Assembly (NCBI GenBank): GCA_964386805.1 | Contig: CAYLUJ010000001.1 | Location: 1 to 56,849 of the forward strand | DNA: 56,849 nucleotides | Origin: an uncultured Pelolinea sp. | GTDB taxonomy: Bacteria > Chloroflexota > Anaerolineae > Anaerolineales > Anaerolineaceae | Direction of reading: 5' to 3' | Shown: positions 4,262 through 33,880 of the stretch, piece after piece | Layout: every line of letters starts with the position of its first letter | How positions within the stretch are numbered: position 1 is the first letter of the stretch | Made by a program: the position numbers and the translations under genes | Notes under the pieces: generated by a model | Databases searched by the model: none | What the model was told of the DNA's origin: nothing | Seen by the model: the letters and a program-made list of their open reading frames with translations, nothing else

Positions 4262-5878
4262 ATGGAAAAAATCAAGCGGGAATACGCAAGTTTTATTCAA
4301 ATCAATCTGCCAAGAGTTCTTACCCAGATCGATCGCGATCTTGATTCTCCCACCTATGGCTGCTGTGATCGCAACTATTGGCACTATAAAATAAGAGATT
4401 TTTCCTCAGCCATTCTTCAGCAATCCGGATTGGTACTGGCAAAGTTATATCAAATAGATTTCCCCGGAAATTCTCTCTTCCAAAATCAGCATGCTTTTGA
4501 TATTGCTGTTGCCACTTTGGATTTTTGGAGAAAAATCCAATTAGCGGATGGTTCTTTTAATGAGTATTACCCGCATGAGCATGGCTTTCCACCTACTGCT
4601 TTTTCATTTTATTCAGCCTGTGAAATTTACCGGGGGTTAGGGCTGGAAAACCCGGTTTATCTAAAAGCATTTTCTAAAACCGCCAAATACTTATCCGATC
4701 ATATCGAATCTCAAGCCAGCAACCAGGAGATGGCTTCCATTACTGCGCTATATAGTTATTTCCTCATTGGCAAAAATCAAGAGATTGAAAAAGCGGTTAA
4801 AAGAAAACTTCAACGTTTTTTAGCTACCCAATCTACAGAAGGTTGGTTCCCGGAATATGATGGGGCAGATTTCGGTTATCAAAGTGTATGTCTGGATATG
4901 CTGGCTGAATACTTTCACCTCAGCCGCGATGAACGCGTGCTTGAACCAATGGAAAGAATTGCAGCGTTTCTAAAATGGTTTGTACAGCCTGACGCTACCA
5001 TTGGCGGAGAATATGGGGCACGCAACACCACTTATTTCTTACCCTTCGGTCTTGAACTGCTGGCTTCCAGAGGAAACGCAGATGCTATCGCCATGCGTTC
5101 TGTTATTTTTAAGAATTGCGACCAACCCGATTATTTTCAACATGCCATCGATGACCGCTATTTCACACATTATGTACTGCATTCATTTGTACGGGCGTTT
5201 GAAATTCCAATGGGGAAAGTGAAAACTGAAACCAGCCTGCCCTATCAAGAACCGGGGAATAGGTATTTTTCTGAAAGTGGTCTGCTCAGTAAGACGGAAA
5301 AAAAATATTTCGCCATTTATTCCCTAAAAAAGGGCTGCGTAAAGGTTTTTCGGGGAATGAATATGATATTTTCAGATTTTGGTTACCGCATCGACCTGGG
5401 CAAAAACACAATTGCAGCAACAAACTGGTTGGATAAAGAAAATCAGTATTCATTTGATGAAAATGAGAATTGCGCTATCACCAAAGGAAGATTTACCAAA
5501 GTTCGCGTACGAACATCATCCCCCATAAGCCATATCGGTTTGCGATTGGCATCATCTCTTTTAGGAAATCACTTAATCGGATTTTTAAAAAAGAAAATGA
5601 TTTTCATCGATAGCCATATTGAGGTATGGTTTGAACGAACCATCAGTTTCCAGGAAAATAGCATTGTAATAAAAGATAAGATCCATTCCCTTGAGAATGT
5701 AACTATTAAGAGCGCTCCCTCATTTTCTCTTCGCCATGTGGCTTCCAGTAAATTCTTTTCTGCAGGTGATTTAGCAGAAAGAAAACTTGTTCTTTTAGAG
5801 AACATCAAAAATGCTATGATTGAAATCAATTATGATATAGAAACTGGAAAAACTAGTATTTTCACAACAGGAGATTGA
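4262..5878 (+). CDS. Hypothetical protein (538 aa), family not recognised
   Basis: Long ORF with coding-like composition. Its stop overlaps the next gene's start (ATGA at 5875-5878). The Trp/Tyr-rich helical N-half could be an alpha/alpha toroid, but that is a guess. Confidence 0.6.
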   Translation: MEKIKREYASFIQINLPRVLTQIDRDLDSPTYGCCDRNYWHYKIRDFSSAILQQSGLVLAKLYQIDFPGNSLFQNQHAFDIAVATLDFWRKIQLADGSFNEYYPHEHGFPPTAFSFYSACEIYRGLGLENPVYLKAFSKTAKYLSDHIESQASNQEMASITALYSYFLIGKNQEIEKAVKRKLQRFLATQSTEGWFPEYDGADFGYQSVCLDMLAEYFHLSRDERVLEPMERIAAFLKWFVQPDATIGGEYGARNTTYFLPFGLELLASRGNADAIAMRSVIFKNCDQPDYFQHAIDDRYFTHYVLHSFVRAFEIPMGKVKTETSLPYQEPGNRYFSESGLLSKTEKKYFAIYSLKKGCVKVFRGMNMIFSDFGYRIDLGKNTIAATNWLDKENQYSFDENENCAITKGRFTKVRVRTSSPISHIGLRLASSLLGNHLIGFLKKKMIFIDSHIEVWFERTISFQENSIVIKDKIHSLENVTIKSAPSFSLRHVASSKFFSAGDLAERKLVLLENIKNAMIEINYDIETGKTSIFTTGD

Positions 5879-6525
5879 TGATGGATCTTGACCAGGCAAT
5901 CACGGGTCGACGCAGTATCCGAAAATATTCAGGGCAGATCGTGGACGAAGAAACGCTTGAACAGGTCATTCAAGCCGGTATGTGGGCACCCACGGCTTGT
6001 AATGATCAAGATTGCCGCTTCATTGTCATTAATGACAAAAATAAATTCGATGAGCTCCTTTCTTTTGGAGCTGCTTCTTTTCTAAAGGATGTCCAAACCG
6101 CAATCCTGGTTCTCTACAAAAATACCAGCACCAACCAGGAATATAGAGATTATTATCAAAGCGGTGCAGCCATCATTCAGAATATGCTGCTCAAAGCACA
6201 CTCTTTAGGTCTGGGGAGCTGTTGGGTCTGCAACTTACCCTCGCAGCGAAAAATGCGCCACATTTTTCACATTCCGGCAAACTATGCGGTCATTGCACTG
6301 GTCAGTATCGGGTATCCTGTATCAACTCCCAAACCCGTCAATCGAAAGAACAAGCCAGATAAAGTCATCTGTCTGAATTCATTTGGTTTCGATGAAAGAA
6401 TAGACTTTGCGATAGAAAGGCAAAAATCAATCAAGAGATTTCTTCGCAAAGTGTACTACCGGCTACCCAAAAGTTCATTCCTCAGGAATTTGGCAGAAAA
6501 ATTAGAAAAGAAATTCGTTAATTAA
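5875..6525 (+). CDS. Nitroreductase-family protein
   Basis: RRSIRKYSGQ...AGMWAPTACNDQ...CWVC pattern is typical of FMN nitroreductase-fold proteins. Confidence 0.85.
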   Translation: MMMDLDQAITGRRSIRKYSGQIVDEETLEQVIQAGMWAPTACNDQDCRFIVINDKNKFDELLSFGAASFLKDVQTAILVLYKNTSTNQEYRDYYQSGAAIIQNMLLKAHSLGLGSCWVCNLPSQRKMRHIFHIPANYAVIALVSIGYPVSTPKPVNRKNKPDKVICLNSFGFDERIDFAIERQKSIKRFLRKVYYRLPKSSFLRNLAEKLEKKFVN

Positions 6526-6623
6526 TATTCACTTCTCAATTCTATTTTCAATGAGTTGTATTTATTAATTTCGAGCATCGTGTTTTTCTGAAGATGTAGA
6601 AATAATGAATTTTGGATAGGAAG

Positions 6624-7181
6624 TTATTTCATTCGAAAGACTGCTAATTGATTTAGTCTCAACATAAAGTGGCTGTAGTGATTAAGTTCCATATCACATT
6701 CATCAGCTAACTTTGCCAGCGTTCCATAATTAAATAGCATTTTGTGTTCATGGTCTGCTTCGAGGCTAAATAACCCCAAATGAGCTCCAAGATAATGGAT
6801 CCAACTCGTGAAAGATGTGGGAGTAGTGAGAATAATGGATGATTTATTTGAAGGAACCAGATACGTATGCAGTAAAGTCATGGTAGCAGCGGGATCTACA
6901 AGATGTTCAATAACTGCTAAAAGTACGATCGAGTTAAATTTTTGTTTTGGATCAGGCAACGAAGTGCTGAATTGATATTGGGGGAATTTTCCTTTTGCGT
7001 GGGTAATCGATTGTTCATCAGGATCATAACCCCAATAGGCTTCAGGAGAAAAAAAAGGAGCCAACTCACCCGAACCACATCCGACGTCCAAAACTCGCCC
7101 CTTAATAAAGGGGAAAGCTTTCTGAATCCGAATTTTTCGCAAAGATGGTGAAAAGAGACCTTCACTAATCTGATCAGACAC
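6624..7181 (-). CDS. Class I SAM-dependent methyltransferase
   Basis: Motif I VLDVGCGSGELAPFF, followed by the acidic loop and LLAVIEHL. Confidence 0.8.
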   Translation of the reverse strand: MSDQISEGLFSPSLRKIRIQKAFPFIKGRVLDVGCGSGELAPFFSPEAYWGYDPDEQSITHAKGKFPQYQFSTSLPDPKQKFNSIVLLAVIEHLVDPAATMTLLHTYLVPSNKSSIILTTPTSFTSWIHYLGAHLGLFSLEADHEHKMLFNYGTLAKLADECDMELNHYSHFMLRLNQLAVFRMK

Positions 7182-7340
7182 TGATAATTCCTTTCAAGCT
7201 TATTCTATGTATAAATGATAATAAAATTTACTGATTATATTACCAAAAAACCTTACTCCGTTTTAAAGATGAAGGCATGCAAAGGAATTACCTGTCCATC
7301 AAAAATAATTTACTTCATTGTAAAATAGATCGATTTACTT

Positions 7341-7838
7341 TTATTCCAAGAACTTCTCGAGTGCACCCAGAGAAACGATCTCACTGATTTCCTCCACAAA
7401 GGCAATGTTTTTGGGAGTAAAACTTGCCAATCCGCCCTTCAGCAGGACGGGGAAAAGGTCTACATCTTTTGCGCCATGATAGGTAGAGAGCACACAAAAT
7501 TCTGCGCAAAACCCGCATAACACTACTGTATCCACATTCATCTTCTTTAATTCTGCCAGCAGAGCGGTCTTATTAAAAGCGTTGCCATAAGTTTTGTGAA
7601 TATGGATATCATCAGGAGTAATTTTTAAGTCATCCGGCAGATCAAAATCAGCTTTTCCAGGGATAAGACCATCATCTTTATTAATATGTTGAATGGAAAT
7701 CACTGGCAATTTTTTCACACGAAAAATTCTAATCGCTTCATTCGCATATTCCACGGCAAGCTTTAATGATTGGGTTGTTTCATCATCAATCGAATAGAAC
7801 TGCTTTTGAATATCGATCACCAATAAAGCTGGTTTCAT
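7341..7838 (-). CDS. Isochorismatase-family cysteine hydrolase
   Basis: KPALLVIDIQKQF...VVLCGFCAEFCVLSTYHGA carries the catalytic D/K/C pattern. SD AAGGAGGA precedes the ATG at 7838; the track ORF begins 8 codons earlier at a TTG. Confidence 0.85.
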   Translation of the reverse strand: MKPALLVIDIQKQFYSIDDETTQSLKLAVEYANEAIRIFRVKKLPVISIQHINKDDGLIPGKADFDLPDDLKITPDDIHIHKTYGNAFNKTALLAELKKMNVDTVVLCGFCAEFCVLSTYHGAKDVDLFPVLLKGGLASFTPKNIAFVEEISEIVSLGALEKFLE

Positions 7839-7965
7839 TGAATCCTCCTTTTCTCTAATCAAAGTATAGGGAGTGTTTTCTCAACACGCAATTGTTCTAT
7901 TGGATTAGTCTTTTATCCCCTCTTAAAAATAAAACCCTCTTCTTCAGAGGGTTCTTTAGGTTTTT

Positions 7966-12302: not shown

Positions 12303-12683
12303 TTACATGTTTTTTAATTGTTTTTGTCGGATAACAACAAAGTAGACAACTAATAAAAGGGCCACTAAATTTATGATCAAGTTAACCAGATCGTAGAAAC
12401 CGAACTCGTCTGTGAAGGTCAATACGATATTGATTACCAACCATACTAGGGTAAATGTGGCAAATCCCTTTTTCTCAAAACCCCAGGCACACACTCCAAA
12501 AATAGCAGCGTTCCCGAGCATTAGAACGGTCAAAATGAATATTAGACCACTGGTCATTTCTAATGAGGGGATTCTGTTCATCGTTGTCAGAATCGCGAAT
12601 GCAATCCATTCAAGCACAAATATACCAAGGAAAAATTTGATCAGAAGAATTAACCTTCTTCCTCTTTTTTCTTTCGCTTGCAT
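12303..12683 (-). CDS. Hypothetical 4-TM membrane protein
   Basis: 126-aa hydrophobic ORF. SD GGGAGG precedes the ATG. Confidence 0.55.
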   Translation of the reverse strand: MQAKEKRGRRLILLIKFFLGIFVLEWIAFAILTTMNRIPSLEMTSGLIFILTVLMLGNAAIFGVCAWGFEKKGFATFTLVWLVINIVLTFTDEFGFYDLVNLIINLVALLLVVYFVVIRQKQLKNM

Positions 12684-13639: not shown

Positions 13640-14500
13640 CTAGAATCCTTCAAAAATCGCAGCCGGTGCGTAGCTGATCCCTACCAGGCTGGATCCGGTA
13701 TGCGCTCCAAGCACCAGAGAAAGCTGGCAGATGGGATACCAAATAGTTTTAAAAGCCGCATCCACTTGTGATTTCAAAGATTCAGCCCCTTCTAGATTGG
13801 CAGCATGAACAACCTGTGCAACCATCTCTTCTTCGGGTTTGATTGTTTTCCCGATAAGGTTTACCAATCCCTGCAGAGCAGATTTAAAGGATCGCGCCTG
13901 ACCCAATTGGGCATAATTGCCCTTTACATTATCCACGCCGATCAGAGGTTTAATGTTCAATATTGAAGCCAGCAGCCCTTTCATGTGGCTGATACGACCT
14001 CCATTGATTAGATATTTCAATTCTTGAAGGGTATAGATAGTACGAGTGGATTCTGATATTCTACGGAGAAGTGGAACAATTTGTTCCTTTGTCCAGCCTG
14101 CCGCAGCCGCTTTGGCTGCCGTCATAACCTGCCAACCGGCCCCGATCGAAAGCGTCTTCGTATCGAATACGGTCACATTTGCTTCAGGAACCATTTTTGC
14201 TGCTGCTTCAGCCGAATTTACTGTACCACTCAATCCGGATGAAATATGAATGGAAAGGATGTCCTTATCTTCTTTTGCCAATTTTCTATACAATTCTGCA
14301 AACTCACCGGCAGATGGTTGTGATGTTTTTGGTAGAATTTCACTGCTTTCCATCGTCGCATAGAAATTATTTAAATCAACACCCTGCCCATCAAGATAAG
14401 TTTTTTCGCCAATATTCACTTTTAGTGAAACTTCATAGATCTCAAATCCTTTTAAATTCATACAGCGTGTATCAGTACCAGAATCCGTTACTATTTTCAT
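13640..14500 (-). CDS. DegV-family fatty-acid-binding protein
   Basis: MKIVTDSGTD...TSQPS...ILSIHISSGLSGT... are DegV hallmarks. Start is taken at the second Met of the track ORF. Confidence 0.85.
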   Translation of the reverse strand: MKIVTDSGTDTRCMNLKGFEIYEVSLKVNIGEKTYLDGQGVDLNNFYATMESSEILPKTSQPSAGEFAELYRKLAKEDKDILSIHISSGLSGTVNSAEAAAKMVPEANVTVFDTKTLSIGAGWQVMTAAKAAAAGWTKEQIVPLLRRISESTRTIYTLQELKYLINGGRISHMKGLLASILNIKPLIGVDNVKGNYAQLGQARSFKSALQGLVNLIGKTIKPEEEMVAQVVHAANLEGAESLKSQVDAAFKTIWYPICQLSLVLGAHTGSSLVGISYAPAAIFEGF

Positions 14501-14774
14501 TTTTTTACCCAATCTGCCATTTGTTAATTTTTGTGACCGAACAATTCTACTTTGCTCCCTGAAAAAGATGGACTATATTGAATAATAATCTCGTATTCAC
14601 TTTTGTAACGAGAAACGATTACCATGGTCACCATCGAATTTCTTTCAGCAAATCACGGCGCTAAAACGATGTGTGTGAGTCAGATCGCCATATTAACGAT
14701 CCCTTAGAATAATCGGAGCATTTTTATCGCATTTTATTATTCTGTATAATTAAAATAAAGAAAGGAGATATTCT

Positions 14775-15560
14775 ATGCCTGCGAAAAATTTGCAAGACGA
14801 AAAGACCTACCAGGGTCTAAGACGGTTCAACCTTATCATGGGTTTCCTCCATCTCATTCAGGGAGTCTTCATGTGGGTGATCAGCAATGATACAACTTAT
14901 CCTATTTATACAAATTATTTGAAGTTCAACACTACCACACTCACTCTCACCCCTGATCCGAAACTGTTCTACGAACTTCCCTTCGGTCCGGCAGTAGCGG
15001 TGTTCCTGCTCATTTCAGCGGTGGCACATTTCTACCTGGCAACAGTTGGTTATCCGTCGTATGTAAAAAATCTAAAAAAGGGGATGAACCCAGTCAGATT
15101 CTACGAATATGCCCTCAGTTCTTCGCTGATGATCGTACTGATCGGCATGCTGGTAGGCATCTGGGATCTGGGAAGCATGATTCTGATGTTCGGATTGAAT
15201 GCCATGATGAACTTCTTTGGAATCATGATGGAGCGTCATAACCAAACAACTGAAAAAACGGATTGGCATTCATTTGTCTATGGAAGTATTGCAGGGATCA
15301 TTCCCTGGATCGTCATCATGATCTACTTCCTTAGCGCACTTTCATCCTCCGATGCCAAACCGCCAGCGTTCGTATACGCCATTATTCCAACCATTTTCGT
15401 GTTCTTTGACAGTTTTGCTGTCAATATGGTTTTGCAATATAAGAAGATTGGGCGCTGGAAGGATTATTTATATGGAGAAAGAGTTTATATCATCCTCAGC
15501 CTGGTCGCCAAGACCGCGCTAGCCTGGCAGATCTTCGCCGGAACACTGGCTCCTATTTAG
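14775..15560 (+). CDS. Heliorhodopsin (7-TM retinal protein, inverted topology family)
   Basis: 261 aa, 7 TM. C-terminal block YGERVYIILSLVAKTALAWQIFAGTL (candidate Schiff-base Lys246, codon 15510-15512) and TM3 block RFYEYALSSSLMIVL (Glu111, codon 15105-15107) closely match heliorhodopsin hallmark regions as I remember them. SD AAGGAGA is 7 nt before the ATG. Confidence 0.85.
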   Translation: MPAKNLQDEKTYQGLRRFNLIMGFLHLIQGVFMWVISNDTTYPIYTNYLKFNTTTLTLTPDPKLFYELPFGPAVAVFLLISAVAHFYLATVGYPSYVKNLKKGMNPVRFYEYALSSSLMIVLIGMLVGIWDLGSMILMFGLNAMMNFFGIMMERHNQTTEKTDWHSFVYGSIAGIIPWIVIMIYFLSALSSSDAKPPAFVYAIIPTIFVFFDSFAVNMVLQYKKIGRWKDYLYGERVYIILSLVAKTALAWQIFAGTLAPI

Positions 15561-15566
15561 ATCAAG

Positions 15567-15596
15567 AAAGAGCGGTGAAATTTTTCATCGCTCTTT
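15567..15596. terminator. Stem-loop between convergent heliorhodopsin and typA genes; probable bidirectional terminator
   Basis: AAAGAGCG-(14 nt)-CGCTCTTT, flanked by A/T-rich sequence. Confidence 0.55.
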
Positions 15597-15608
15597 CCAT
15601 TTATTCAA

Positions 15609-17468
15609 TTATTCTTCTTCAAGTGCTTTTCTGGCGTTTTTTTCCAGTTTTCCCCGTTCTTCACTATCTAGAATGCGTTTACGAATGCGATACGCCTGTG
15701 GCGTAACCTCAAGCAGCTCATCATCTGTCAAATATTCAATGGCTTCATCCAGGCTCATCTCCCTTGGAGTAGTAAGACGAATCTCAATATCTTTGTTGGA
15801 TGAACGCATATTGGTAAGATGTTTCTGTTTACATACATTAATGGTCAGGTCACCTGGGCGAGTATATTCCCCGATCACCATCCCTTCATAAACATCCACA
15901 CCTGCTCCATAAAAAAGCGTACCGCGTTCTTCAGCATTCTTTAACCCATAGGTGCTAGTAACACCTGTCTCCCATGCTACCAACGATCCAGTGTAGCGCG
16001 TTGCAAGTGCTCCAGAAGCTACATCATAACCATGAAAGAGAGTATTCATAACGCCCAAGCCACGGGTTGCTGTTAAGAACTGATATCTGAATCCCAGCAA
16101 TCCACGTGTTGGGACAATGTAAACGATACGTACACTACCATCTGTATTTTCCTGCATATCCTTCATGCTGCCGTGCCGTTTTCCAAGCATTTCGACCACA
16201 GCGCCAATCGTAACAGAGCTGGTTTCAATATACACTTCTTCATACGGTTCCAGGAGAGTGCCATCTTTGGTTTTATGATAGATCACCTCAGGTCGCGAAA
16301 CCTGAAATTCATAACCTTCGCGGCGCATGGTTTCGATAAGGATCGCTAGATGCAGTTCACCTCTCCCAGAAACCAGGAATGAATCAGTACTATCGGTTTC
16401 TTCCACACGTAGCGCCACATTGGTACGCAGTTCTGCAAACAGCCGTTCACGTATTTTACGAGAGGTGCCCCAACGTCCTTCTCTTCCCGAAAATGGAGAG
16501 GTGTTTACACCAAAGGTCATGCGTACCGTAGGTTCTTCCACACGAATCGGCGGTAAAGGATCAGGATGTTCGGGATCGGACAGAGTTTCACCAATAGCGA
16601 TGCCCTCCAACCCCGCCAGGGTGATGATCTCACCAGCTGCTGCTTCATCTACTTCAATACGTTCCAGACCTTTATGAATATAGAGATACTGGGCAGTTTC
16701 AGCGATCTGTTCTCCATCCAGGGTTATTCTTGTAAGAGTTTGCCCAACATGGATCCTCCCGGCATAAATGCGCCCCATAGCAGTCACCCCGCGGTAATCA
16801 TCATAACCAAGGTTGGTGACCAGCATGCGATAAGGTGCATCCATATCCACTTTCGGTGCAGGAATATAACGCAAAATTGTTGAAAACAATGGCTGTAGGT
16901 CTGGTCCTAATTCAGGGGTTAAGCCAGCCCGCGCAGAAGTTGCACTGGCAAAGATCACAGGGAAATCTGCTTGTTCGTTGGAAGCACCCAGATCAATAAA
17001 AAGGTCAAAGGTTTGGTTCAACGCTCTTTCTGGTTCAGCATCCTTGCGATCAACTTTATTAATGACAACAATCGCTTTATGTCCCATTTCAAGCGCTTTT
17101 TTCAGTACAAAACGGGTTTGCGGCATGGGGCCTTCCGCAGCATCTACTAGCAGTAGAACGCCATCCACCATGTTCATCACACGTTCTACCTCGCCGCCGA
17201 AATCGGCATGTCCGGGTGTATCGACAATATTGATCTTCACTTGCTGCTTGGTTGTGGGATCATATACAGAGATAGCAGTATTTTTCGCCAGAATGGTGAT
17301 TCCGCGTTCGCGTTCCAGATCATTTGAATCCATCACACGCTCAGCCACCTGCTGATTTTCACGGAAGGTATTCGCTTGTCGCAACAAGCCATCCACCAAG
17401 GTGGTTTTTCCATGATCTACATGAGCTATAATGGCAATATTTCGTATGTCAGTTCGTTCAATAAGCAT
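15609..17468 (-). CDS. typA: Translational GTPase TypA/BipA
   Basis: [19 protein letters not shown]...[14 protein letters not shown]...NKVDR, with full-length EF-G-like architecture (619 aa). Confidence 0.97.
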
Positions 17469-17772: not shown

Positions 17773-18375
17773 ATGGCAGACCAATTCCCTTTTGATGAAG
17801 AATTTCATGAACTGAAAATAATTGGCAAGGATTTCAGCCATGCAACCATTGAAAGCAGAGATTTTGAAAGCTGTACTTTTACAAACTGCCAGATGGAAGA
17901 AACTGTCTTTCGTTACTGCCATTTCCGCGATTGCATCTTTGAACAAAGTGACTTGAACCTAGCGCAATTTGAGCACTGCCGTTTTCAAAATACGACCTTC
18001 CGCAAAACACGTCTGGTGGGGATAGACTGGACAAAACTGGAGTGGAGAAAGAATCAGCTTCAACCGATTTTCCATTTTTCTCAATGTAATCTTAGCTATA
18101 CTAATTTCTTTGAATGCCCATTAAAAGGGAGCACATTCTCTGATTGTCTTCTACAGGAAGCTGATTTCGCAGAAGCCGACTTGAGCACCTGCAATTTTCA
18201 GCGCGCTGATCTTGCCCGGGCGCGTTTTCTCCATACCAACTTGACCGACACTGATTTTACCAATGCACAGCAGTACGATATCAATGCATCAAATAACCTT
18301 CTAAAAAGGACAAAATTCAGCCTGCCTGAAGCCGTGGCATTACTGCACAGTTTGGATATCATTCTCGAAGAATAA
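17773..18375 (+). CDS. Pentapeptide-repeat protein
   Basis: Tandem A(D/N)LxX-type repeats throughout (ADLSTCNFQRADLARARFLHTNLTDTDF...). Confidence 0.85.
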   Translation: MADQFPFDEEFHELKIIGKDFSHATIESRDFESCTFTNCQMEETVFRYCHFRDCIFEQSDLNLAQFEHCRFQNTTFRKTRLVGIDWTKLEWRKNQLQPIFHFSQCNLSYTNFFECPLKGSTFSDCLLQEADFAEADLSTCNFQRADLARARFLHTNLTDTDFTNAQQYDINASNNLLKRTKFSLPEAVALLHSLDIILEE

Positions 18376-18389
18376 AAACTAATCCGTTA

Positions 18390-19703
18390 TTATATAGAAC
18401 CACATGCATTTTTGTATTGGATAAGCACCTGGTTAATGCTGGCAATAATGAGGTTAGAAGGATCGGCTTCAATATTATTGATACGAACGAATGGATATAA
18501 ATGTGGAAAATACTGGCTTATCAGCGAAAGTGGCAGTGGTTTCTTGCGTAGATTGGTCATTAATTTCTGATAGGCTGTTTGCACTGCCGGATATCCCCAA
18601 TAATACCGTACACGATCGCTAAAACTATATTTTAATTCAAAACGTATCTCTTCTTCTGAACCTGCATAATATTTTTCCCAATGAGAGGGCGCCATCTGCA
18701 TGGTATTCAGCAGTGTGTCGACAATTTGTGATCGGCTATCTATAGCTATAAAAGATAACTCTTTCTCAATCGCAGCCAAACTAAAAACAGCTTCCCGAAA
18801 GGCAAATGTTAATGCAGGGCCAACCTTCAAAATAGAAAAATGATCTTCCACCATTTGTTTTAACAATTGTGGGGTTTGATAATCGGTGGAATGAGCTTCA
18901 AACACCATTCCTGGAATTGTCTCGATAAATTTGCTGAGTGATTGCGTCTTTGAGCGATCATAAGAAAAGATCACTTTATCATCAAACTCTACCCCGGGAG
19001 AAATGACCAACGCGATAATACGCTGGAATGCTTCTTCAAGACCATACCGATGAAAGACCGTCTGATAGGTTTGCAGAGTCTGTTCTGCAAAATCGACCCT
19101 CGTTACAGGACAATTTTCACTTTGCCCGGCAGTCATACCACCGGGAGAAGGGACTTCTGTGCCGATCACATACACTGGAAATTGAGTGACCTGGTGTATA
19201 CGAGCGGCACTTTCAGCTCGTACACAGAGTTGAGCGGAACGCTCAGCAATCATTTCTGTTGATGGCGAATCCTCATTCCCACAAGGCATGGAAGTGTCAA
19301 GATGGATTTTGACATATCCGGCAGCAACATAATCCTGTACCAGTTTTTCCGCTTTTTCCATTGCCAACGATGTCTGTTCCTTCTTCCATGGATTGGGTCC
19401 CAGGTGATCGCCACCCAGAATGATGCGCTCGATTGGAAAATCCATTTCTCTGGCAATATCTTGAAGATAGATAGTGAATTGCATGGGGGTCATCCCGCTA
19501 TATCCCCCCTCTTGGTTCACCTGGTTGCAGGTGGATTCAATCAATAGAAAGTCCTCATCGGTTCTATGTGAATGCATTGCAGCTTTCAAAACTTCCCGAT
19601 TCGCCGAACAAATGGAATAGATCCCCACCGGCTCACCATTCTTATGTGCCCGGATAATTTCTTGAAGTGGATGACTGGTGGAAAACATACTCCTCTTGTT
19701 CAT
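18390..19703 (-). CDS. GatZ/KbaZ-family protein (class II tagatose-bisphosphate aldolase accessory subunit / tagatose-6-phosphate 4-epimerase-like)
   Basis: 437 aa. The N-terminus (HPLQEIIRAHKNGEPVGIYSICSAN) and length are typical of GatZ/KbaZ. No GatY/KbaY partner is in the window. Confidence 0.8.
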   Translation of the reverse strand: MNKRSMFSTSHPLQEIIRAHKNGEPVGIYSICSANREVLKAAMHSHRTDEDFLLIESTCNQVNQEGGYSGMTPMQFTIYLQDIAREMDFPIERIILGGDHLGPNPWKKEQTSLAMEKAEKLVQDYVAAGYVKIHLDTSMPCGNEDSPSTEMIAERSAQLCVRAESAARIHQVTQFPVYVIGTEVPSPGGMTAGQSENCPVTRVDFAEQTLQTYQTVFHRYGLEEAFQRIIALVISPGVEFDDKVIFSYDRSKTQSLSKFIETIPGMVFEAHSTDYQTPQLLKQMVEDHFSILKVGPALTFAFREAVFSLAAIEKELSFIAIDSRSQIVDTLLNTMQMAPSHWEKYYAGSEEEIRFELKYSFSDRVRYYWGYPAVQTAYQKLMTNLRKKPLPLSLISQYFPHLYPFVRINNIEADPSNLIIASINQVLIQYKNACGSI

Positions 19704-19716
19704 ACAGTAAAATTCT

Positions 19717-20694
19717 CTACCTCTCAGGATAGGTCTTGAACCATTCCTGGTCTATCTGGAATTGCTCCAACTCGTTAAACCATGGGGCAGCTAGAGCATC
19801 CACCAGTTCAGTGAGCCTATGCATTCGTTTATATGCAACATTTTGTAAAAAATGGATGCGATCGTGCCCGCTCAGGTCAGTGGCTTCTTTCCATACCGCC
19901 CGGCCTGCAGCAACACCCGCTGCGCCTGCCATACAAGCTGCTATCACCTGTTGCAAGAAAACATCAAAATCAACAGAAGCGGAAAGCAATATCCATGGGA
20001 TCGCGCTTTTTTGGGTCAATTCTTTGCACGCTGCTTTCCATCTGTCAAAACTTTTTTCGGTATGAATATCCAATGGAAATTCCGCTTTTAACACATCTGC
20101 TCCGAGAGGGGTAAGTTTTTCTGCAGATTTCAAAATCACATCCATCCGTTCAGTCCCTTCCAGCTTTTTTTGAACCGGATCAAGAGGATAAGAAAGGACC
20201 TCCAAAAAAAAGGGGGTGTCCGTTTTTTGACAATCATCCGCTACTTGGCTGACCAGGTCTTCAATGTGGGTATGCGTGGCAGAATCTGGATGATAGTAAA
20301 CCAGTAACTTCACCGCACTGCCACCCATTCGCTTAACCTTGGCAACACTCCAATCGGGCAATATTTGGCTTTCTCGAGCGGATGGATCGCCTGTATATCC
20401 GGTTTCTTCGAGCGCTACCAACAATCCACGATTACCAGGCAGTACCTGAGTAGCAACATTCTGTGCAGCTCCATAGAGGGGATCCAATAAAAATGCGCTG
20501 CAACTGTCGGCAAGGGTTTTCACCACATCTTGTTTGAAAGCGGTCATCATTTCATTCGCATTCGGATCTTGTTTCTGGATATGTAAAAGATTGCGCAAAT
20601 TATTTCGGTGATCCAGAGCCAGGATAGCAAACTTACCATTGGGAGTAGCACACTGCTGCAATCCTCGAATTTTTCCTATTGATCGTGTAAACAT
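19717..20694 (-). CDS. Class I tagatose-1,6-bisphosphate aldolase-like (LacD/DeoC-type TIM barrel)
   Basis: FAILALDHRNNL...VKLLVYYHPDS...GADVLKAEFP resembles LacD/YihT-type aldolases. Confidence 0.7.
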   Translation of the reverse strand: MFTRSIGKIRGLQQCATPNGKFAILALDHRNNLRNLLHIQKQDPNANEMMTAFKQDVVKTLADSCSAFLLDPLYGAAQNVATQVLPGNRGLLVALEETGYTGDPSARESQILPDWSVAKVKRMGGSAVKLLVYYHPDSATHTHIEDLVSQVADDCQKTDTPFFLEVLSYPLDPVQKKLEGTERMDVILKSAEKLTPLGADVLKAEFPLDIHTEKSFDRWKAACKELTQKSAIPWILLSASVDFDVFLQQVIAACMAGAAGVAAGRAVWKEATDLSGHDRIHFLQNVAYKRMHRLTELVDALAAPWFNELEQFQIDQEWFKTYPER

Positions 20695-20895
20695 CTTATT
20701 TCTTCCTATTCCTTCTCAACAAAATCATATCACGGAGAGAGAATAAATGGATGTTCGCTTTTGTTTGCTTGATATTTCAATCGGATTCTTACCTTGTTTT
20801 CCCCTTATATACTCATATTAGAACATTATTTATGTGCTTTATTGTGCTATTATTTGACTTAATAACACTAAGTAACATATGATGAAAGGAGAATT

Positions 20896-21663
20896 ATGTT
20901 AAAAGAAGAGCGACAACAAACGATCATTCGAGAGCTGGATAGAAACGGCAGCGTGGCAGTTAGCGAACTCGCTGAGCGTTTCAACGTATCGAGAATGACA
21001 ATTCGGAGAGATCTTTTTGAGATCGAGAGAAACAGCCAATTAAAAAGAACGCATGGTGGTGCAGTATTGCCATCCAAATCACCCAATTATAGTGAGCCTC
21101 CCACCATCAAGCGCATGGAACTTTTAAAAGAGGAAAAAATTCGCATTGCCAAGGCCGTTGCGGCATCGATTGGGGAAAAAGAGGTGATCTTTCTGGGTTC
21201 AGGCACTACCACATTATATGTGGCCAAAGAGCTTCATGAAAGGGACGATATTACGGTGTTGAGTAATGCAATCACCATCATTAACGAGCTAAGTACCAAT
21301 GGGAAAATGCCTATCATCGGTATTGGTGGTTTTCTGCGGCGCGAAGAGCAATCCATGATAGGTCATTTCGCCGAGAGGGTCATTGAAGATCTGCGGGTGG
21401 AGAAAGTGATCATGGGCATGCGCGGGGTTCACCCTCGCTTCGGGTTGACCAGCGAAGATCCGCAGGAGTTAATGACCGATCGGAAGATCCTTGGCATCAG
21501 CGACAACGTCATCATCGTTGCCGACCACACCAAGATCGGTTATGTATCCACCAGCCGAACAGCTCCCATCACGGCTGCCAAGACCATCATCACAACCACA
21601 GATGCACAGGACGATTTCGTTCGTGCGATCCGTGAACAAGGGGTAGAGGTAATACAAGTTTAA
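20896..21663 (+). CDS. DeoR-family transcriptional regulator (AgaR-like position)
   Basis: HTH (VAVSELAERFNVSRMTIRRDL) plus DeoR C-terminal domain (LGSGTTT...IVADHTK). SD AAAGGAGA. Confidence 0.9.
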   Translation: MLKEERQQTIIRELDRNGSVAVSELAERFNVSRMTIRRDLFEIERNSQLKRTHGGAVLPSKSPNYSEPPTIKRMELLKEEKIRIAKAVAASIGEKEVIFLGSGTTTLYVAKELHERDDITVLSNAITIINELSTNGKMPIIGIGGFLRREEQSMIGHFAERVIEDLRVEKVIMGMRGVHPRFGLTSEDPQELMTDRKILGISDNVIIVADHTKIGYVSTSRTAPITAAKTIITTTDAQDDFVRAIREQGVEVIQV

Positions 21664-21686
21664 AAATAAGGAGAAAAAGAACGTTC

Positions 21687-22724
21687 ATGCCAGATAATAG
21701 AGGTAAGTTTACACAGACAGAAATTCTCTCACAACCCGAGACCTGGAAGGAAACATTACAATATTTAAAATCCGATTGGGTTGGCAAATTGCCAAATCTG
21801 CAGGATTATGACCAAATTGTTATCACCGGCTGTGGATCGACATATTATTTTTCAATTTGGGCAGCCCGCCTTCTGCACTGTAGCACTGGAATTCCAGCCA
21901 TCGCTCTCCCCAGTTCAGAATTATGGTATTCCGGGGACCTGTGGTTAAAACCATTCAAGAAAATACTTTTCATCGTCATTTCTCGCTCGGGTCAGACAAC
22001 GGAAACACTTCAAGCATTGGATCTATTCCTACGATCGCAAAAAGGGGATGCCATTGCCGTAACCTGTTATAAAGATAGCCATTTAGCCAAAATGGCTCCT
22101 CTTTCAGTAACTACAACGGCTGGTATGGAGCAAAGTGTTGCACAGACCCGCTCTTTCAGCAACATGATGTGGCCTATTATCCTGTTGAGCGAAAAAACCA
22201 TCCAAGATGAGTTAATTACAACAGTTCATACTACCGCGCAAACCTTCCTATCGAATTATCAAGCCACTGCGCGTGAGATCGGGAATAATCTTGATATCGA
22301 ACGATTCTTTTTCCTCGGTAATGGGCCCCTCTTCGGTCTTTCTCAAGAAGTCATGCTGAAAATGAAGGAAATGTCATTGAGTTATTCAGAGGCTTTCCAT
22401 TTTCTTGAATTTCGACACGGACCAATGTCAATGGTAAACAACCGTTCTCTGATCGTGGGATTCACAAATCAAGCAACCCAGGAATTTGAACTTCCTGTCT
22501 TTCGTGACATGCAGAAGTTAGAAGGGTTGACGCTCGCCGTCGGAAGATTCGCGGAAAAACCACAAGGCATAGACTATCTCTTTAGCTTTGGTGAGTATAT
22601 CCCTTCTAGGTGGTCATATCCTTTATATTTGCCACTCATCCAATTGCTTGCATATGAGAGAAGTATTGCCAAAGGATTGAATCCGGATAAACCGGAAAAT
22701 CTCACTGCAGTTGTGAAACTGTAG
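21687..22724 (+). CDS. SIS-domain sugar-phosphate isomerase/deaminase (AgaS-like)
   Basis: Two SIS modules: ITGCGSTYYFS...ISRSGQTTETL, and a second half with FLGNGPLFG. Confidence 0.8.
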   Translation: MPDNRGKFTQTEILSQPETWKETLQYLKSDWVGKLPNLQDYDQIVITGCGSTYYFSIWAARLLHCSTGIPAIALPSSELWYSGDLWLKPFKKILFIVISRSGQTTETLQALDLFLRSQKGDAIAVTCYKDSHLAKMAPLSVTTTAGMEQSVAQTRSFSNMMWPIILLSEKTIQDELITTVHTTAQTFLSNYQATAREIGNNLDIERFFFLGNGPLFGLSQEVMLKMKEMSLSYSEAFHFLEFRHGPMSMVNNRSLIVGFTNQATQEFELPVFRDMQKLEGLTLAVGRFAEKPQGIDYLFSFGEYIPSRWSYPLYLPLIQLLAYERSIAKGLNPDKPENLTAVVKL

Positions 22725-22741
22725 TGTTTTTAAGGAAAAGA

Positions 22742-23203
22742 ATGCAATTAGAAGATTTGTTGATTCGAAATACCATCAGGGCGAAAGTACCACTTCAAAC
22801 CCGAGATGAGATTATCCAAAAAGCAGGTGAATTACTTGTGGAAGCGGATGCGATCGAACCACGCTACATCCATGCAATGAAAAGAGTGATGGATGAGCTA
22901 GGTCCATATTGTGTGATCGCACCCGGTATCGCGCTTTTGCACGCGCGCCCTGAAGATGGAGTAAAACGCGCCTGCCTTTCATTGCTTACATTAGAAAAAC
23001 CGGTGCACTTTGGTCATTCCACCAACGATCCGGTTGATCTCGTATTCACCTTGGGTGCCAGGGATAAACAAGGGCATATTGAAGCTCTAGCAGAACTGGC
23101 TGTTTTTTTATCGAAAGAAGAATTTCTTCAAATAGTACGAGGTTGTGAGAATTCACAATCCCTGCAAAATGAAATCTTTGAATATATCACAACGAGAAAG
23201 TAG
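22742..23203 (+). CDS. PTS EIIA, type 2 (fructose/mannitol/ascorbate family)
   Basis: PTS_EIIA_2 pattern with GIALLHARPEDGV (phospho-His). Start is taken at the ATG at 22742; the track starts at a GTG at 22724. Confidence 0.8.
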   Translation: MQLEDLLIRNTIRAKVPLQTRDEIIQKAGELLVEADAIEPRYIHAMKRVMDELGPYCVIAPGIALLHARPEDGVKRACLSLLTLEKPVHFGHSTNDPVDLVFTLGARDKQGHIEALAELAVFLSKEEFLQIVRGCENSQSLQNEIFEYITTRK

Positions 23204-23210
23204 AGAAAAA

Positions 23211-23486
23211 ATGGTCATTGCAACATTATGCGGAATGGGTTTTGGGACAAGTATGATGCTCAAGCTTTTCATTGACGATATTCTTAAGGCCGAAGGGATC
23301 AAAGCCGAGGTCAATCCATGGGATCTGGGGACTTTTAAAGGAAACAAAGCGGATATTGTTGTCGCTCCAGTAGATATGGAACCGCATCTACGCGATTATC
23401 CGTCCAAAATCGTTCTAATAAAGAATTTAGTAGATAAGGTAGAAATTAAGGAAAAAATACTCAAGGCAATTCGAGAGCTCTCATAA
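23211..23486 (+). CDS. PTS EIIB, ascorbate (SgaB/UlaB)-like
   Basis: MVIATLCGMGFGTSMMLK has the active-site Cys near the N-terminus. Start trimmed to the ATG at 23211, just after the EIIA stop at 23203. Confidence 0.75.
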   Translation: MVIATLCGMGFGTSMMLKLFIDDILKAEGIKAEVNPWDLGTFKGNKADIVVAPVDMEPHLRDYPSKIVLIKNLVDKVEIKEKILKAIRELS

Positions 23487-23562
23487 TTTTTGTATTTCAA
23501 GAAAGGAGGATTTGGGATTATCTATTGTTCGTTTCATTTTGAAAAAATTTTAGGAGGATACA

Positions 23563-24879
23563 ATGGCAGTATTTGATACATTACTTTCTTTGATCACGCT
23601 ACCCGCTATCGTTCTGGGGTTCATTGCATTGATCGGTCTTCTTCTCCAGAAAAAATCAGCAGGGGATGTGTTTAAAGGAACATTAAAAACAATTCTTGGA
23701 CAGTTGATCATCGGTGTTGGAACTAGCGCTTTGATCGCCGCTCTTTCACCAATCCAGGTCTTCTTCGAAAAAGGTATTCCGGCAAGTGGTTTTGAAACAT
23801 TTGTCACTTACGATGAAGCTGTGGTTGGAGCAGTACAAAGTGCGAACCTCGCAAATATTGGTGCTGAGATCGCATGGACAATGTTATTCGGATATGTAGT
23901 GCATATTCTGGTTTCCAAATTCTCAAAGCATCACTACATTTATCTCACCGGTCATATGATCTGGGTACACGCAGGTGCATTCGCGATTTTGTTCCACTCC
24001 TTTGGTCTGCCTACCTGGGCCGTCGTCACACTGGCTTCCATCGTCGATGGTTTCTATATGACCCTAATGCCTGCTTTAGCTCAACCCATTATGCGCAAAA
24101 TCACCGGCAGCGATGAGATCGCATTTGGCCATGGGCAAACATTGTTGAACATGCTCGGGGCATGGGCAGGTAAACTGGTGGGGAAACCGGAAGATTCCAC
24201 GGAGAACGTGAAGATCAAGGAGTCTTTCAATTTCCTGCGAGATATGTCGGTATCTATCTCGATCATCATGCTCCTGGTCGCTTTTATCGGCGCAGGTCTT
24301 GCCATTGGGCAGATCGGCATAGCCGGATTCGAAGAGCAGATCAGCAGTGGGCAAAATTGGATCGTGTACATTCTCTTGATTGCGCTTAATTTTACCGCTG
24401 GTGTTTTGGTCCTGCTACAAGGAGTTCGCATGTTGATTGCAGAGATCACACCTGCTTTCAAGGGTATCGCAGAAAAACTCATCCCTGGCGCAAAACCTGC
24501 TCTGGATTGCCCGGTAATTTACCCCTATGCTCCCAATGCTCTCATTTTTGGCTTGATCTCAGGTACTATCGGACAGGTGGTGGGCATGGTAGTATTGGCT
24601 TTGATCGGCTGGCCTGTGCCACTACCCAGCATGATTGCAGCTTTCTTCGCCAGCGGAGCCGGAGCCATCTTCGGAAATGCCACTGGCGGTCGCAAAGGCG
24701 CCTGGTTGGGTGGTTTCTTATGGGGCTTTGTGGGTTGGTTGTTGATCAGCTTTGCTTATAAATTCCAGGTATTTGGCGATCTATCTGGCATGGGTGCATT
24801 AAGTTTAGGATTCACAGTTCCAGACGCGATTGTTCCCGGTATTGTTATCTGGTGTATCGCCAAGTTATTCGGTATATAA
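23563..24879 (+). CDS. PTS EIIC, ascorbate (UlaA/SgaT) family
   Basis: 438-aa polytopic protein whose N-terminus and length are typical of UlaA/SgaT. SD AGGAGGA. Confidence 0.88.
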   Translation: MAVFDTLLSLITLPAIVLGFIALIGLLLQKKSAGDVFKGTLKTILGQLIIGVGTSALIAALSPIQVFFEKGIPASGFETFVTYDEAVVGAVQSANLANIGAEIAWTMLFGYVVHILVSKFSKHHYIYLTGHMIWVHAGAFAILFHSFGLPTWAVVTLASIVDGFYMTLMPALAQPIMRKITGSDEIAFGHGQTLLNMLGAWAGKLVGKPEDSTENVKIKESFNFLRDMSVSISIIMLLVAFIGAGLAIGQIGIAGFEEQISSGQNWIVYILLIALNFTAGVLVLLQGVRMLIAEITPAFKGIAEKLIPGAKPALDCPVIYPYAPNALIFGLISGTIGQVVGMVVLALIGWPVPLPSMIAAFFASGAGAIFGNATGGRKGAWLGGFLWGFVGWLLISFAYKFQVFGDLSGMGALSLGFTVPDAIVPGIVIWCIAKLFGI

Positions 24880-24893
24880 TACTGGTACAAGAA

Positions 24894-24928
24894 AGAGAGG
24901 AGAGAGGTATTCTCCTCTCTTTTCTTTT
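24894..24928 (+). terminator. Intrinsic terminator between PTS EIIC and nagA
   Basis: AGAGAGGAGA-(7 nt)-TCTCCTCTCT followed by TTTCTTTT. Confidence 0.7.
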
Positions 24929-24941
24929 ATATAATTCCATT

Positions 24942-26120
24942 ATGCTACAAAAAATTATCCATGCGAATCTCTATACACCGGATGAACTTCTAGCGGACCA
25001 CTCCATTGAAATTGAGAATGGAATCATCAAGGATATTTACCCGACACCGGAATTTGAGAAATCCCTTGATTCAATCATCAATGCAAATGGTTTTATCGTT
25101 ACCCCGGGACTGATCGATATTCATATTCATGGTTGTATGGGGGCTGACACCATGGATGCAACTTTTAATGCATTGAACACCATGAGTGCTTTTTTAGGAG
25201 CACATGGTGTGACCTCTTTTTTAGCTACAACCGTCACCAGCAGCCGGGAAAACATCATGGATGCCCTGACAAACATATCAAAATATCGTTTGGATCTGAC
25301 TGGTGCTAACTTATTGGGAGCACATATAGAAGGACCGTACATCAATATTGCTTTCAAGGGCGCTCAGAATCCTGATTACTTTCGCTCTCCCATCAAGAAA
25401 GAATATGAGATATGGTTTGAAAATGGAAACGTAGAATTAATCACCATAGCACCAGAGTTAAAGGGAATGGACGAATTCATTCATGCCTGTGCGGATCATA
25501 GTATCGAATTGGCAATCGGTCATAGCAATGCGTCGTATGAACAGGTCATCCATGCTGCGGATCTGGGAGTACATCAGGCAACTCATTTATTCAATGGTAT
25601 GCAGGGATTACACCATCGTGAACCGGGAACGGTAGGGGGTATCCTTGTTGATGATCGATTTCATGCTCAAATCATCACAGATGGAATCCATTTACATCCT
25701 GCGATCGTCAAGCTCATTCTCACTTGCAAAGGAATCGATCATACCATTTTGATCTCAGATGCCATTCGTGCCACGGGATTATCGGATGGAAAGTATGATC
25801 TGGGGGGCCAGGAAGTAACCGTAACAAATGGGGTCGCCAAAATCGCCAATGGCAGTCTGGCTGGTTCAACTCTCACCCTGGATTCTGCTTTATGCAACAC
25901 CATGAAATTCACTGGCCTGGATTTCAGGCATGTTTTACCCATGGCTACCAGAATTCCAGCAGAAGCAATGCATTTCTCCCAGAAAAAAGGGTACATTCGT
26001 GTTGGTTACGATGCTGATCTCACTCTCTTTAATTCTGATCTTCAGGTAGTTTCAACCATTGTCGGTGGTAATTTAATTTTTAATAAAGAAAAAAAATGGA
26101 GTAAAGAATGTCAAAATTAA
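24942..26120 (+). CDS. nagA: N-acetylglucosamine (or N-acetylgalactosamine)-6-phosphate deacetylase
   Basis: DIHIHGCMGADTMD...HIEGPYIN...GHSNASYEQ...THLFNGM...DGIH are NagA/AgaA amidohydrolase motifs. Start trimmed to the ATG at 24942, beyond the terminator. Confidence 0.88.
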   Translation: MLQKIIHANLYTPDELLADHSIEIENGIIKDIYPTPEFEKSLDSIINANGFIVTPGLIDIHIHGCMGADTMDATFNALNTMSAFLGAHGVTSFLATTVTSSRENIMDALTNISKYRLDLTGANLLGAHIEGPYINIAFKGAQNPDYFRSPIKKEYEIWFENGNVELITIAPELKGMDEFIHACADHSIELAIGHSNASYEQVIHAADLGVHQATHLFNGMQGLHHREPGTVGGILVDDRFHAQIITDGIHLHPAIVKLILTCKGIDHTILISDAIRATGLSDGKYDLGGQEVTVTNGVAKIANGSLAGSTLTLDSALCNTMKFTGLDFRHVLPMATRIPAEAMHFSQKKGYIRVGYDADLTLFNSDLQVVSTIVGGNLIFNKEKKWSKECQN

Positions 26121-26854
26121 CACATGAATACATTGAAGGTGTAATTTCCCTTCTAAAAAAAATAAATTCAGAGGAAGAAGCTGTTATTAATCAAGCAGCA
26201 AAGCTAATGGCAGATGCGGTTCAGAACGGCAAACGTATCTTTGGTTTTGGTTGTACTCATTCCTGTCTGCCTATTCAAGAGGTTGTATACCGCGCGGGTG
26301 GTCTCATGTTGATCAATCCCATCTATGCTCCCGGTATTGCTCATCTGGATGTTCACCCCACTACGATGACATCGGGAATTGAAAATCTCAACGGGTACGC
26401 AAAAGTTATTCTGGATAACCAGCCTATTCAAAAGGGAGATATTCTCATTATCATTTCAGTTTCAGGTCGCAATGCGGTGCCTATTGAAATGGCTAAGATA
26501 GCACAGGAACGGGGAATTATCGTCATCGGAATCACATCCCGGAAATATACGGAGGGTGTTGCCTCAAGGCATGCATCGGGCAAAAAAATGTACAACTTTG
26601 CAGATGTGGTGATTGATAATAAAGCTGAGAAAGGGGATGCGCTGCTTTCGGCTGATGGTCTCAATACAAAGTTCGCATCTGCTTCTGGGATCACCAGTAG
26701 CGCCATCATGCATTGCCTTTCAGCCGCCACCATTGAAGAACTGTTGGCAAGAGGAATCACGCCACCTGTTTTTGTAGCAGCGAATGTGGACGGTGGTTCT
26801 GAACATAATCTCAAACTCTTAAAGGAATATCATGACCGAATATTCTATGTATAG
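26108..26854 (+). CDS. SIS-domain protein (UPF0309-like sugar isomerase domain)
   Basis: GKRIFGFGCTHS...IIISVSGRNAVPIEMA pattern. Overlaps the nagA stop. Confidence 0.75.
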   Translation: MSKLTHEYIEGVISLLKKINSEEEAVINQAAKLMADAVQNGKRIFGFGCTHSCLPIQEVVYRAGGLMLINPIYAPGIAHLDVHPTTMTSGIENLNGYAKVILDNQPIQKGDILIIISVSGRNAVPIEMAKIAQERGIIVIGITSRKYTEGVASRHASGKKMYNFADVVIDNKAEKGDALLSADGLNTKFASASGITSSAIMHCLSAATIEELLARGITPPVFVAANVDGGSEHNLKLLKEYHDRIFYV

Positions 26855-26869
26855 CTTAAAATAAAAAAA

Positions 26870-26909
26870 GGCAGTGCACTACACTACATTGTGTGCACTG
26901 CCTTTTTTT
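26870..26909 (+). terminator. Intrinsic terminator ending the amino-sugar operon
   Basis: GGCAGTGCAC-(13 nt)-GTGCACTGCC followed by T7. Confidence 0.8.
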
Positions 26910-26953
26910 AATCTCCTTATAGTTCATGAAATATTTTCCGCTACAATATACCT

Positions 26954-33870: not shown

Positions 33871-33880
33871 GCTTCACTCC

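Follow-up and report, generated by a model that had tools for sequence, protein, structure and literature searches.

A predicted group B heliorhodopsin encoded between degV and typA in an uncultured Pelolinea sp. (Chloroflexota)

According to our analysis, the open reading frame (ORF) at positions 14775 to 15560 (+ strand, ATG start, 261 amino acids [aa]) of a 56,849-nucleotide (nt) stretch of an uncultured Pelolinea sp. genome (contig CAYLUJ010000001.1 of assembly GCA_964386805.1; the whole stretch is called the window here) very probably encodes a canonical, functional heliorhodopsin (HeR) of group B. The protein resembles the HeRs of Bellilinea caldifistulae GOMI-1 (BcHeR) and of the Thermoplasmatales archaeon SG8-52-1 (TaHeR), and its host is a monoderm bacterium of the family Anaerolineaceae (Chloroflexota). 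An initial annotation, made by reading the DNA without database searches, had placed a 261-aa heliorhodopsin gene between degV and typA, and Pfam matches for the ORF and for both flanking genes agree with that placement. The Pfam family Heliorhodopsin (PF18761) was matched over its entire profile (positions 1 to 242 of 242) with 342.1 bits at an E value of 2e-102 (cutoff, 26.7 bits), which excludes a chance origin of the match, and the NCBIfam equivalog NF038020, "heliorhodopsin HeR," was likewise matched from end to end (positions 1 to 244 of 244), with 378.8 bits against a cutoff of 100. When the translation was compared with sequences in the PDB, heliorhodopsins were the only matches, with E values from 2.5e-78 to 2.2e-44 and alignments running essentially from end to end; they comprise TaHeR (6is6/7u55; E = 2.5e-78), HeR-48C12 (6su3, with E = 6e-60, together with 6su4 and 6uh3), 9ljj, and 9vfc.

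The residues on which heliorhodopsin photochemistry depends are all in place. The initial annotation had assigned the Schiff-base lysine and the counterion to Lys246 and Glu111, and the alignments with characterised proteins uphold both assignments. K246 lies in YGERVYIILSLVAKTALAWQIFAGTL (residues 233 to 258 of the translation), where it aligns with K241 of 48C12 and K238 of TaHeR inside the motif LSLVAK(S/T)ALAWQ of transmembrane helix 7 (TM7), while E111 lies in RFYEYALSSSLMIVL (residues 108 to 122), where it aligns, within RFYEYALSSS of TM3, with E107 of 48C12 and E108 of TaHeR. Counted along the PDB alignment, H26, S81, H85, E111, S242, and K246 stand opposite H23, S76, H80, E107, S237, and K241 of 48C12; by this alignment H26 and H85 are the His pair of TM1 and TM2, and S81 and S242 are the Ser residues near the Schiff base. 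None of the six varies when the protein is aligned with 14 relatives.

The translation contains seven hydrophobic segments, and the loops on the side of the N terminus carry 14 Lys and Arg residues, versus 3 on the opposite side. Under the positive-inside rule, such a distribution predicts a cytoplasmic N terminus and, with it, the inverted (N-in) topology by which heliorhodopsins are defined and which the initial annotation had mentioned for the family. The 36-residue loop between TM1 and TM2 (A-B loop) aligns with its counterpart in TaHeR; in HeRs, this long loop folds into a beta-sheet that serves in dimerisation. An AlphaFold2 model computed from a 15-sequence alignment shows seven helices and four A-B-loop strands at residues 41 to 69, with a mean predicted local distance difference test (pLDDT) score of only 51.6 and a predicted template modelling (pTM) score of 0.36; since the PDB sequence matches cover the full length, a fold search with this model was unnecessary. 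The ratio of nonsynonymous to synonymous substitution rates (dN/dS) is 0.028 to 0.044 against four orthologues, a value that indicates strong purifying selection and shows that the gene is no relic. Taken at the level of sequence, then, the ORF is genuine and intact, and it shows every defining feature of the heliorhodopsin family that a sequence can reveal. We also considered a type 1 microbial rhodopsin pump accompanied by a blh/crt retinal operon and rejected it, since Heliorhodopsin is the sole Pfam match of the protein and neither a carotenoid family nor blh is found among the approximately 52 window ORFs covered by our Pfam scans.

The protein belongs to a well-populated branch of the family. 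A search of 5.8 billion proteins returned 7919 matches with E values below 1e-20, and the best of them, 77 to 96% identical, come from Anaerolineaceae, Anaerolineae, or Anaerolineales wherever a source is named. The exact protein is already present in NCBI, and other members of its 90% identity cluster are named "MAG: heliorhodopsin HeR [Anaerolineaceae bacterium]" there; in JGI/IMG, by contrast, some records of this cluster carry the erroneous name "succinate dehydrogenase hydrophobic anchor subunit." Scanning one genome per GTDB species, we found HeR relatives in at least 523 species genomes, and the best 80 loci, whose neighbourhoods were compared, are almost all from Anaerolineae. Identity of the HeR is 94% in Anaerolineaceae UBA4781, 90% in a Pelolinea sp. 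(with 96% for TypA), 78% in B. caldifistulae GOMI-1, and 76% in Anaerolinea thermophila. HeRs have been reported as restricted to monoderms, and the nearest relatives of the window protein all belong to Anaerolineae/Chloroflexota.

Among the characterised proteins, BcHeR is the closest in kind. It is 78% identical to the window HeR over 254 aa without a gap, comes from the same bacterial class, and has the same length and the same set of Lys, Glu, His, and Ser residues, and its host, too, is a non-phototrophic anaerobe of a low-light habitat. Unlike the window HeR, BcHeR has itself been characterised photochemically, and unlike in the window, DegV and TypA are both absent from the 6 kb around it (locus L033). 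PMC9385722, which cites Shibukawa et al. 2019 for this protein, describes a slow photocycle in which the M intermediate was unobserved and an absence of ion transport, and it gives the source of BcHeR as digester sludge with low irradiance. TaHeR and 48C12 are matched over their full lengths as well, but their hosts differ in phylum (an archaeon and a member of the Actinobacteria, respectively), and 48C12 represents group A, whereas the window HeR falls with BcHeR and TaHeR in group B. The gene product is thus an ortholog of a characterised protein, in a class with common and automatically annotated HeRs, and it stands next to a published neighbour, DegV; this kind of ORF, its close relatives, and its adjacency to DegV are therefore already known, and we regard the locus as an ordinary case. 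The novelty that the initial annotation had attached to the genomic context was accordingly overstated, given that the DegV neighbour and the rarity of blh near HeRs are both published, Anaerolineae HeRs are abundant, and BcHeR has been characterised.

The HeR gene appears to be transcribed on its own. A Shine-Dalgarno sequence, AAAGGAG, is found at 14761 to 14767 (+ strand), with GGAG at 14764 to 14767, 7 nt 5' of the ATG, and a GAAAGGAG-like block is kept at this site in the alignment of clade loci (defined below). The hexamer TATAAT at 14745 to 14750 (+ strand), about 24 nt 5' of the ATG, is probably the -10 element of a promoter of the gene's own, and a similar hexamer occupies the same position in nine aligned clade loci. 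A scan for sigma-70 consensus promoters, requiring at least 4 of 6 matches, reported no HeR promoter; it missed this hexamer because a good -35 element (4/6 matches) is absent. An extended -10 reading was dropped since the TG directly abuts the hexamer. Downstream, a hairpin at 15566 to 15597, with a 14-pair stem, fills most of the 48-nt gap between the convergent stop codons of HeR and typA. Its folding free energy is -21.4 kcal/mol on the + strand (z = -6.6 versus shuffled controls) and -17.8 kcal/mol on the - strand (z = -5.2), the U-tracts being imperfect on both, and it is probably a bidirectional terminator common to the two genes. The Shine-Dalgarno sequence and the shared terminator had both been noticed in the initial annotation. 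Since the gene upstream is divergent and the gene downstream convergent, HeR is predicted to be monocistronic. An Rfam scan of the whole window at gathering thresholds gave no match and thus no riboswitch or leader RNA 5' of HeR.

The upstream neighbour, degV (13640 to 14512, - strand; Pfam DegV, 260.3 bits), encodes a FakB-like fatty-acid-binding protein, and its start codon and that of HeR are 262 nt apart. As called, the degV ORF starts at a TTG at 14512 and is 290 aa long; its homologues are 286 aa long and begin with MKIVTDS, which makes the ATG at 14500 the likelier start, and the true product probably has 286 aa. The downstream neighbour, typA/bipA (15609 to 17468, - strand), encodes a translational GTPase with Pfam GTP_EFTU, EFG_C, and BipA_C domains. 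A comparison of neighbourhoods across HeR-bearing relatives, proposed with the initial annotation, gave a divided answer: the degV/HeR/typA sandwich is kept in a single clade, and in other Anaerolineae the neighbours differ. Within the clade, all loci with an HeR of at least 84% identity (L001 to L012) have it with its orientations intact, as does L086 (HeR, 81%), where an extra META-domain gene stands between degV and HeR. The remaining Anaerolineae loci, with HeRs at most 82% identical, have neither a degV nor a typA orthologue near HeR, and DegV orthologues are either at least 74% or at most 62% identical, with a sharp drop between the two.

The history of the site can be read from three outgroup loci of Anaerolineaceae (L087, L088, and L089; DegV, 57 to 59% identical), in which degV is followed by typA on the same strand at a distance of about 120 bp and HeR is missing. 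The linkage of degV and typA thus predates HeR at this site. Read along the coding strand, the gene order is typA..degV inside the clade and degV..typA outside it; HeR would therefore have entered a pre-existing degV-typA pair in the ancestor of the clade, with a local rearrangement that swapped the order of the two genes. In the same outgroup loci, around positions 4700 to 7850, a tRNA gene is located just 5' of degV and a DUF1295 gene 2 to 3 kb upstream. TypA was rejected as a functional partner of HeR, since its gene is convergent and adjoins degV in genomes without HeR at the locus, and we think that it is probably a syntenic bystander.

Within the spacer between degV and HeR, the best-conserved block of the alignment is a 35-nt element, TCACTTTTGTAACGAGAAACGATTACCATGGTCAC, at 14597 to 14631. 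It is present as a single copy in the window (0 expected) and occurs in all clade loci (L001 to L012, and positions 4869 to 4903 of L086), always 85 to 98 nt from the degV start, and it is absent from the three HeR-less outgroups. Its pattern is TCACTTTNGTAAY-N8-RTKACC-N3-GTCAY, with an internal inverted repeat, GGTAAT/ATTACC. On the degV strand it contains the -35-like hexamer GTTACA, followed after 16 nt by TATTAT (promoter-like match from 14609 to 14582, - strand). The simplest reading is that the block is probably the degV promoter, perhaps with an operator, and nothing in it is evidence for co-regulation of HeR. The core GGTAAY-N8-RTTACC occurs in the window no more often than by chance; as the block is unique and its core is at chance frequency, a regulon is not definable.

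If the protein works as its characterised relatives do, it would bind all-trans retinal at K246, with E111 as the counterion. The retinal would probably be scavenged from outside the cell through the lateral fenestration of the HeR, an uptake route that was proposed for TaHeR, whose host is also without a retinal pathway. Absorption of green light and isomerisation of the chromophore would start a slow photocycle (>1 s) with a long-lived O state and bring the protein into a long-lived signalling state, and light would regulate a partner through protein-protein contact at the cytoplasmic face. Ion transport would be absent, as it is in BcHeR, TaHeR, and 48C12. Some viral HeRs do transport protons, and the window protein could in principle be a light-driven or light-gated ion transporter like viral V2HeR3; however, the bacterial and archaeal HeRs tested so far, including those three, are without transport, and the window HeR keeps the canonical sensor-type residues, so that we deem a transporter extremely improbable.

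Which protein would receive the signal is uncertain from the locus. The validated partners of HeRs are glutamine synthetase for AbHeR, a photolyase for TfHeR, and the ABC (ATP-binding cassette) exporter OmrDE for OcHeR, the last from an actinobacterium. The window HeR shares with these three its protein family and the presumed light-dependent regulation of a partner by direct binding. Unlike theirs, its locus has no such partner gene adjacent to HeR, which is predicted to be monocistronic, and its flanking genes are divergent and convergent where the partner genes of the known operons are co-directional. Among the approximately 52 window ORFs we found no photolyase, glutamine synthetase, or ABC exporter and, in line with the initial annotation, which had reported neither a transducer-like gene nor genes for carotenoid or retinal synthesis, no histidine kinase, methyl-accepting chemotaxis protein (MCP), or response regulator; the ten partner families of the groups of Kim et al. 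2024, MerR and DUF2177 among them, are not found by Pfam within 10 kb of HeR.

The best local candidate is the product of the divergent degV gene, which we put forward with considerable doubt. The initial annotation had seen no information in the degV flank. Chazan et al. (bioRxiv 10.1101/2021.02.16.431466; Environ Microbiol 2022), who analysed thousands of HeR neighbourhoods, reported DegV and DUF2177 as the two most HeR-specific neighbour families, with Firmicutes and Chloroflexi as the largest contributors to the HeR-DegV signal and DUF1295 as a frequent third member; the same study found blh to be rare near HeRs and in HeR-only genomes and proposed a role of HeRs in light-dependent lipid remodelling. 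Later work indicates that the HeR-DegV association is not universal. The window agrees with the published association in that a DegV gene adjoins HeR in a Chloroflexi genome; it differs in that degV is divergent instead of co-directional and in that Pfam detects no DUF2177, DUF1295, or FakA in the window. In clade loci, a small membrane protein (12303 to 12683 in the window) is found repeatedly on the far side of degV; it was considered as a DUF2177 protein and set aside for want of a significant match.

Several observations weigh against a retinal-based sensor that acts on DegV. No phytoene synthase or desaturase, lycopene cyclase, or blh is found among the approximately 52 window ORFs, and relatives come from anaerobic, low-light habitats, where the use of a light sensor is not obvious. 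As for the partner, degV is divergent from HeR and not co-transcribed with it, DegV occurs within 6 kb of HeR in only 4 of about 70 Anaerolineae loci outside the clade, and the adjacency of the two genes may be an accident of the HeR insertion site, given the degV-typA pair of the outgroups. The first of these points, together with the provenance of relatives from digester and sediment metagenome-assembled genomes (MAGs), the low irradiance at the source of BcHeR, and the fatty acid or alkane held at the fenestration in HeR crystal structures, could suggest a role independent of light and retinal, such as binding of a membrane lipid or another hydrophobic ligand, or a mere relic. However, none of the aligned sequences departs from the Schiff-base lysine, the counterion, or the His pair, an external source can supply retinal, and the low dN/dS rules out a relic. 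We consider this explanation very improbable, if slightly less so than ion transport.

The idea that HeR and DegV form a functional module deserves a fuller weighing. Here, light-activated HeR would bind or modulate the FakB-like DegV, or hand over a lipid through its fenestration, and so, under light or oxidative stress, would adjust the phosphorylation of fatty acids and the remodelling of phospholipids, with the divergent promoter region co-regulating both genes. Such a module would draw on the strongest published HeR-specific neighbour family, and the divergent pair with its 35-nt block is kept throughout the clade, even in L086 with its META-domain insert, and loci lacking HeR also lack the block. 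Outside the clade, remote DegV paralogues (27 to 34% identical to the window DegV) lie near HeR in four loci, of which L035 (HeR, Staygreen, DegV) and L042 (DegV, HeR) are independent same-strand arrays and L021 and L022 have DegV followed by DUF1295, 3 kb upstream of HeR; in L044, the order is HeR, Staygreen, PlsY, the last being a consumer of the acyl-phosphate made by the Fak system. On the other hand, degV and typA were adjacent before HeR arrived, HeR and degV are not transcribed together, DegV is missing from most Anaerolineae HeR loci, the window has no FakA, DUF2177, or DUF1295, the block reads as an ordinary -35/-10 promoter of degV, and no interaction of the two proteins is known. 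We therefore hold the module to be a tentative possibility, roughly a one-in-several prospect.

The other reading, to which we give about even chances and which is the likelier of the two, has HeR acting as a stand-alone light sensor, with the gene for its partner in another part of the genome. The degV and typA flanks would then be inherited synteny following a single insertion, and the partner might be of a kind seen at related loci, such as DNA-repair enzymes, an ABC exporter, or a MerR/B12 regulator. The sandwich is limited to one clade (HeR at least 81% identical) and the neighbours vary widely at identities of 82% and below, the outgroups have degV followed by typA without HeR, and close relatives keep a pair of ABC exporter genes, a validated type of HeR partner, 4 kb away. 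What this reading leaves unexplained is why genes for DegV and lipid metabolism have repeatedly and independently come to lie near HeR, both in other Anaerolineae and across phyla.

Other Anaerolineae HeR loci have contents that we report in their own right. Fused ABC exporter pairs (ABC_membrane plus ABC_tran, about 600 aa each) are found near HeR in at least 10 of them: 4 kb away in L002 and L005, and adjacent or within about 1.3 kb in L013, L014, L015, L020, L026, L027, L046, and L058; the window has no such pair. In several loci (L035:6832-7296, L044:6805-7272, L046:5529-6014, L052:6973-7293, L048, and L042:3866-4330), the gene directly 3' of HeR, on the strand of HeR, encodes a Staygreen-family protein (PF12638, 178 bits). 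Plant members of this family are Mg-dechelatases acting in chlorophyll breakdown. Our literature search found no paper naming heliorhodopsin together with Staygreen. Upstream of HeR in L044 is a Rieske/VanA_C oxygenase, and a pyrimidine-dimer DNA glycosylase (Pyr_excise) is encoded directly 5' of HeR in L021 and L022. Across L021, L022, L035, and L042, there are further a MerR plus B12-binding regulator (CarH/LitR-like), a DUF1722/2-thiouracil-desulfurase protein, and a 402-aa DegV next to DUF1295 (positions given for L035:8991-10295, L042:2075-3382, and L042:4527-5510). With these genes and the glycosylase, such loci look like light-response islands.

The rest of the window contains genes of a phosphotransferase system (PTS) and of sugar catabolism, DeoR regulators, proA/proB, a GGDEF-BcsB-glycosyltransferase cluster, TrkA genes, a P-type ATPase, and an amino-acid ABC importer. 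Loci L001 to L005 and L086 have msrB and msrA between typA and a pentapeptide-repeat gene; msrB and msrA are missing from the window (17773 to 27400 compared), where instead an island of about 8.5 kb at 18390 to 26854, between the pentapeptide gene and mobB, encodes GatZ, a LacD aldolase, DeoR, SIS, a galactitol-type PTS, and NagA. The cluster at 30816 to 39527 (- strand) encodes a GGDEF protein, a BcsB-like protein, a 586-aa protein without a Pfam match, and a 1320-aa protein in which five MshEN (cyclic di-GMP-binding) domains are fused to a family 2 glycosyltransferase; it looks like an unusual polysaccharide synthase controlled by cyclic di-GMP. Large ORFs negative in Pfam are located at 4262 to 5878 (+ strand, 538 aa), 33881 to 35641 (- strand, 586 aa), and 49739 to 51499 (- strand, 586 aa).

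The discovery value of this locus is limited, since Anaerolineae HeRs are abundant and named automatically by NCBI and earlier studies have described the adjacency to DegV as well as the lack of blh. It does add a further case of a retinal photoreceptor retained under strong selection in an anaerobic, low-light lineage, and its divergent control region of 262 bp, with the 35-nt block, makes it a compact test case for the unproven hypothesis linking HeR to DegV and lipids. If HeR and DegV were truly paired, light would be linked to acyl-phosphate and phospholipid metabolism, as the published lipid-remodelling hypothesis holds. A more elaborate version, which we offer as speculation and rate as rather unlikely, less probable than the pairing itself, is that HeR, on inserting into the ancestral degV-typA pair, gained together with degV the clade-specific 35-nt block and so became part of a co-regulated HeR/FakB module, through which a strict anaerobe unable to make retinal would couple the sensing of light, scavenged retinal, or lipid to the incorporation of exogenous fatty acids into the phospholipid of its membrane. 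Should this be true, the module would give the lipid-remodelling hypothesis for heliorhodopsins its first concrete case that can be tested.

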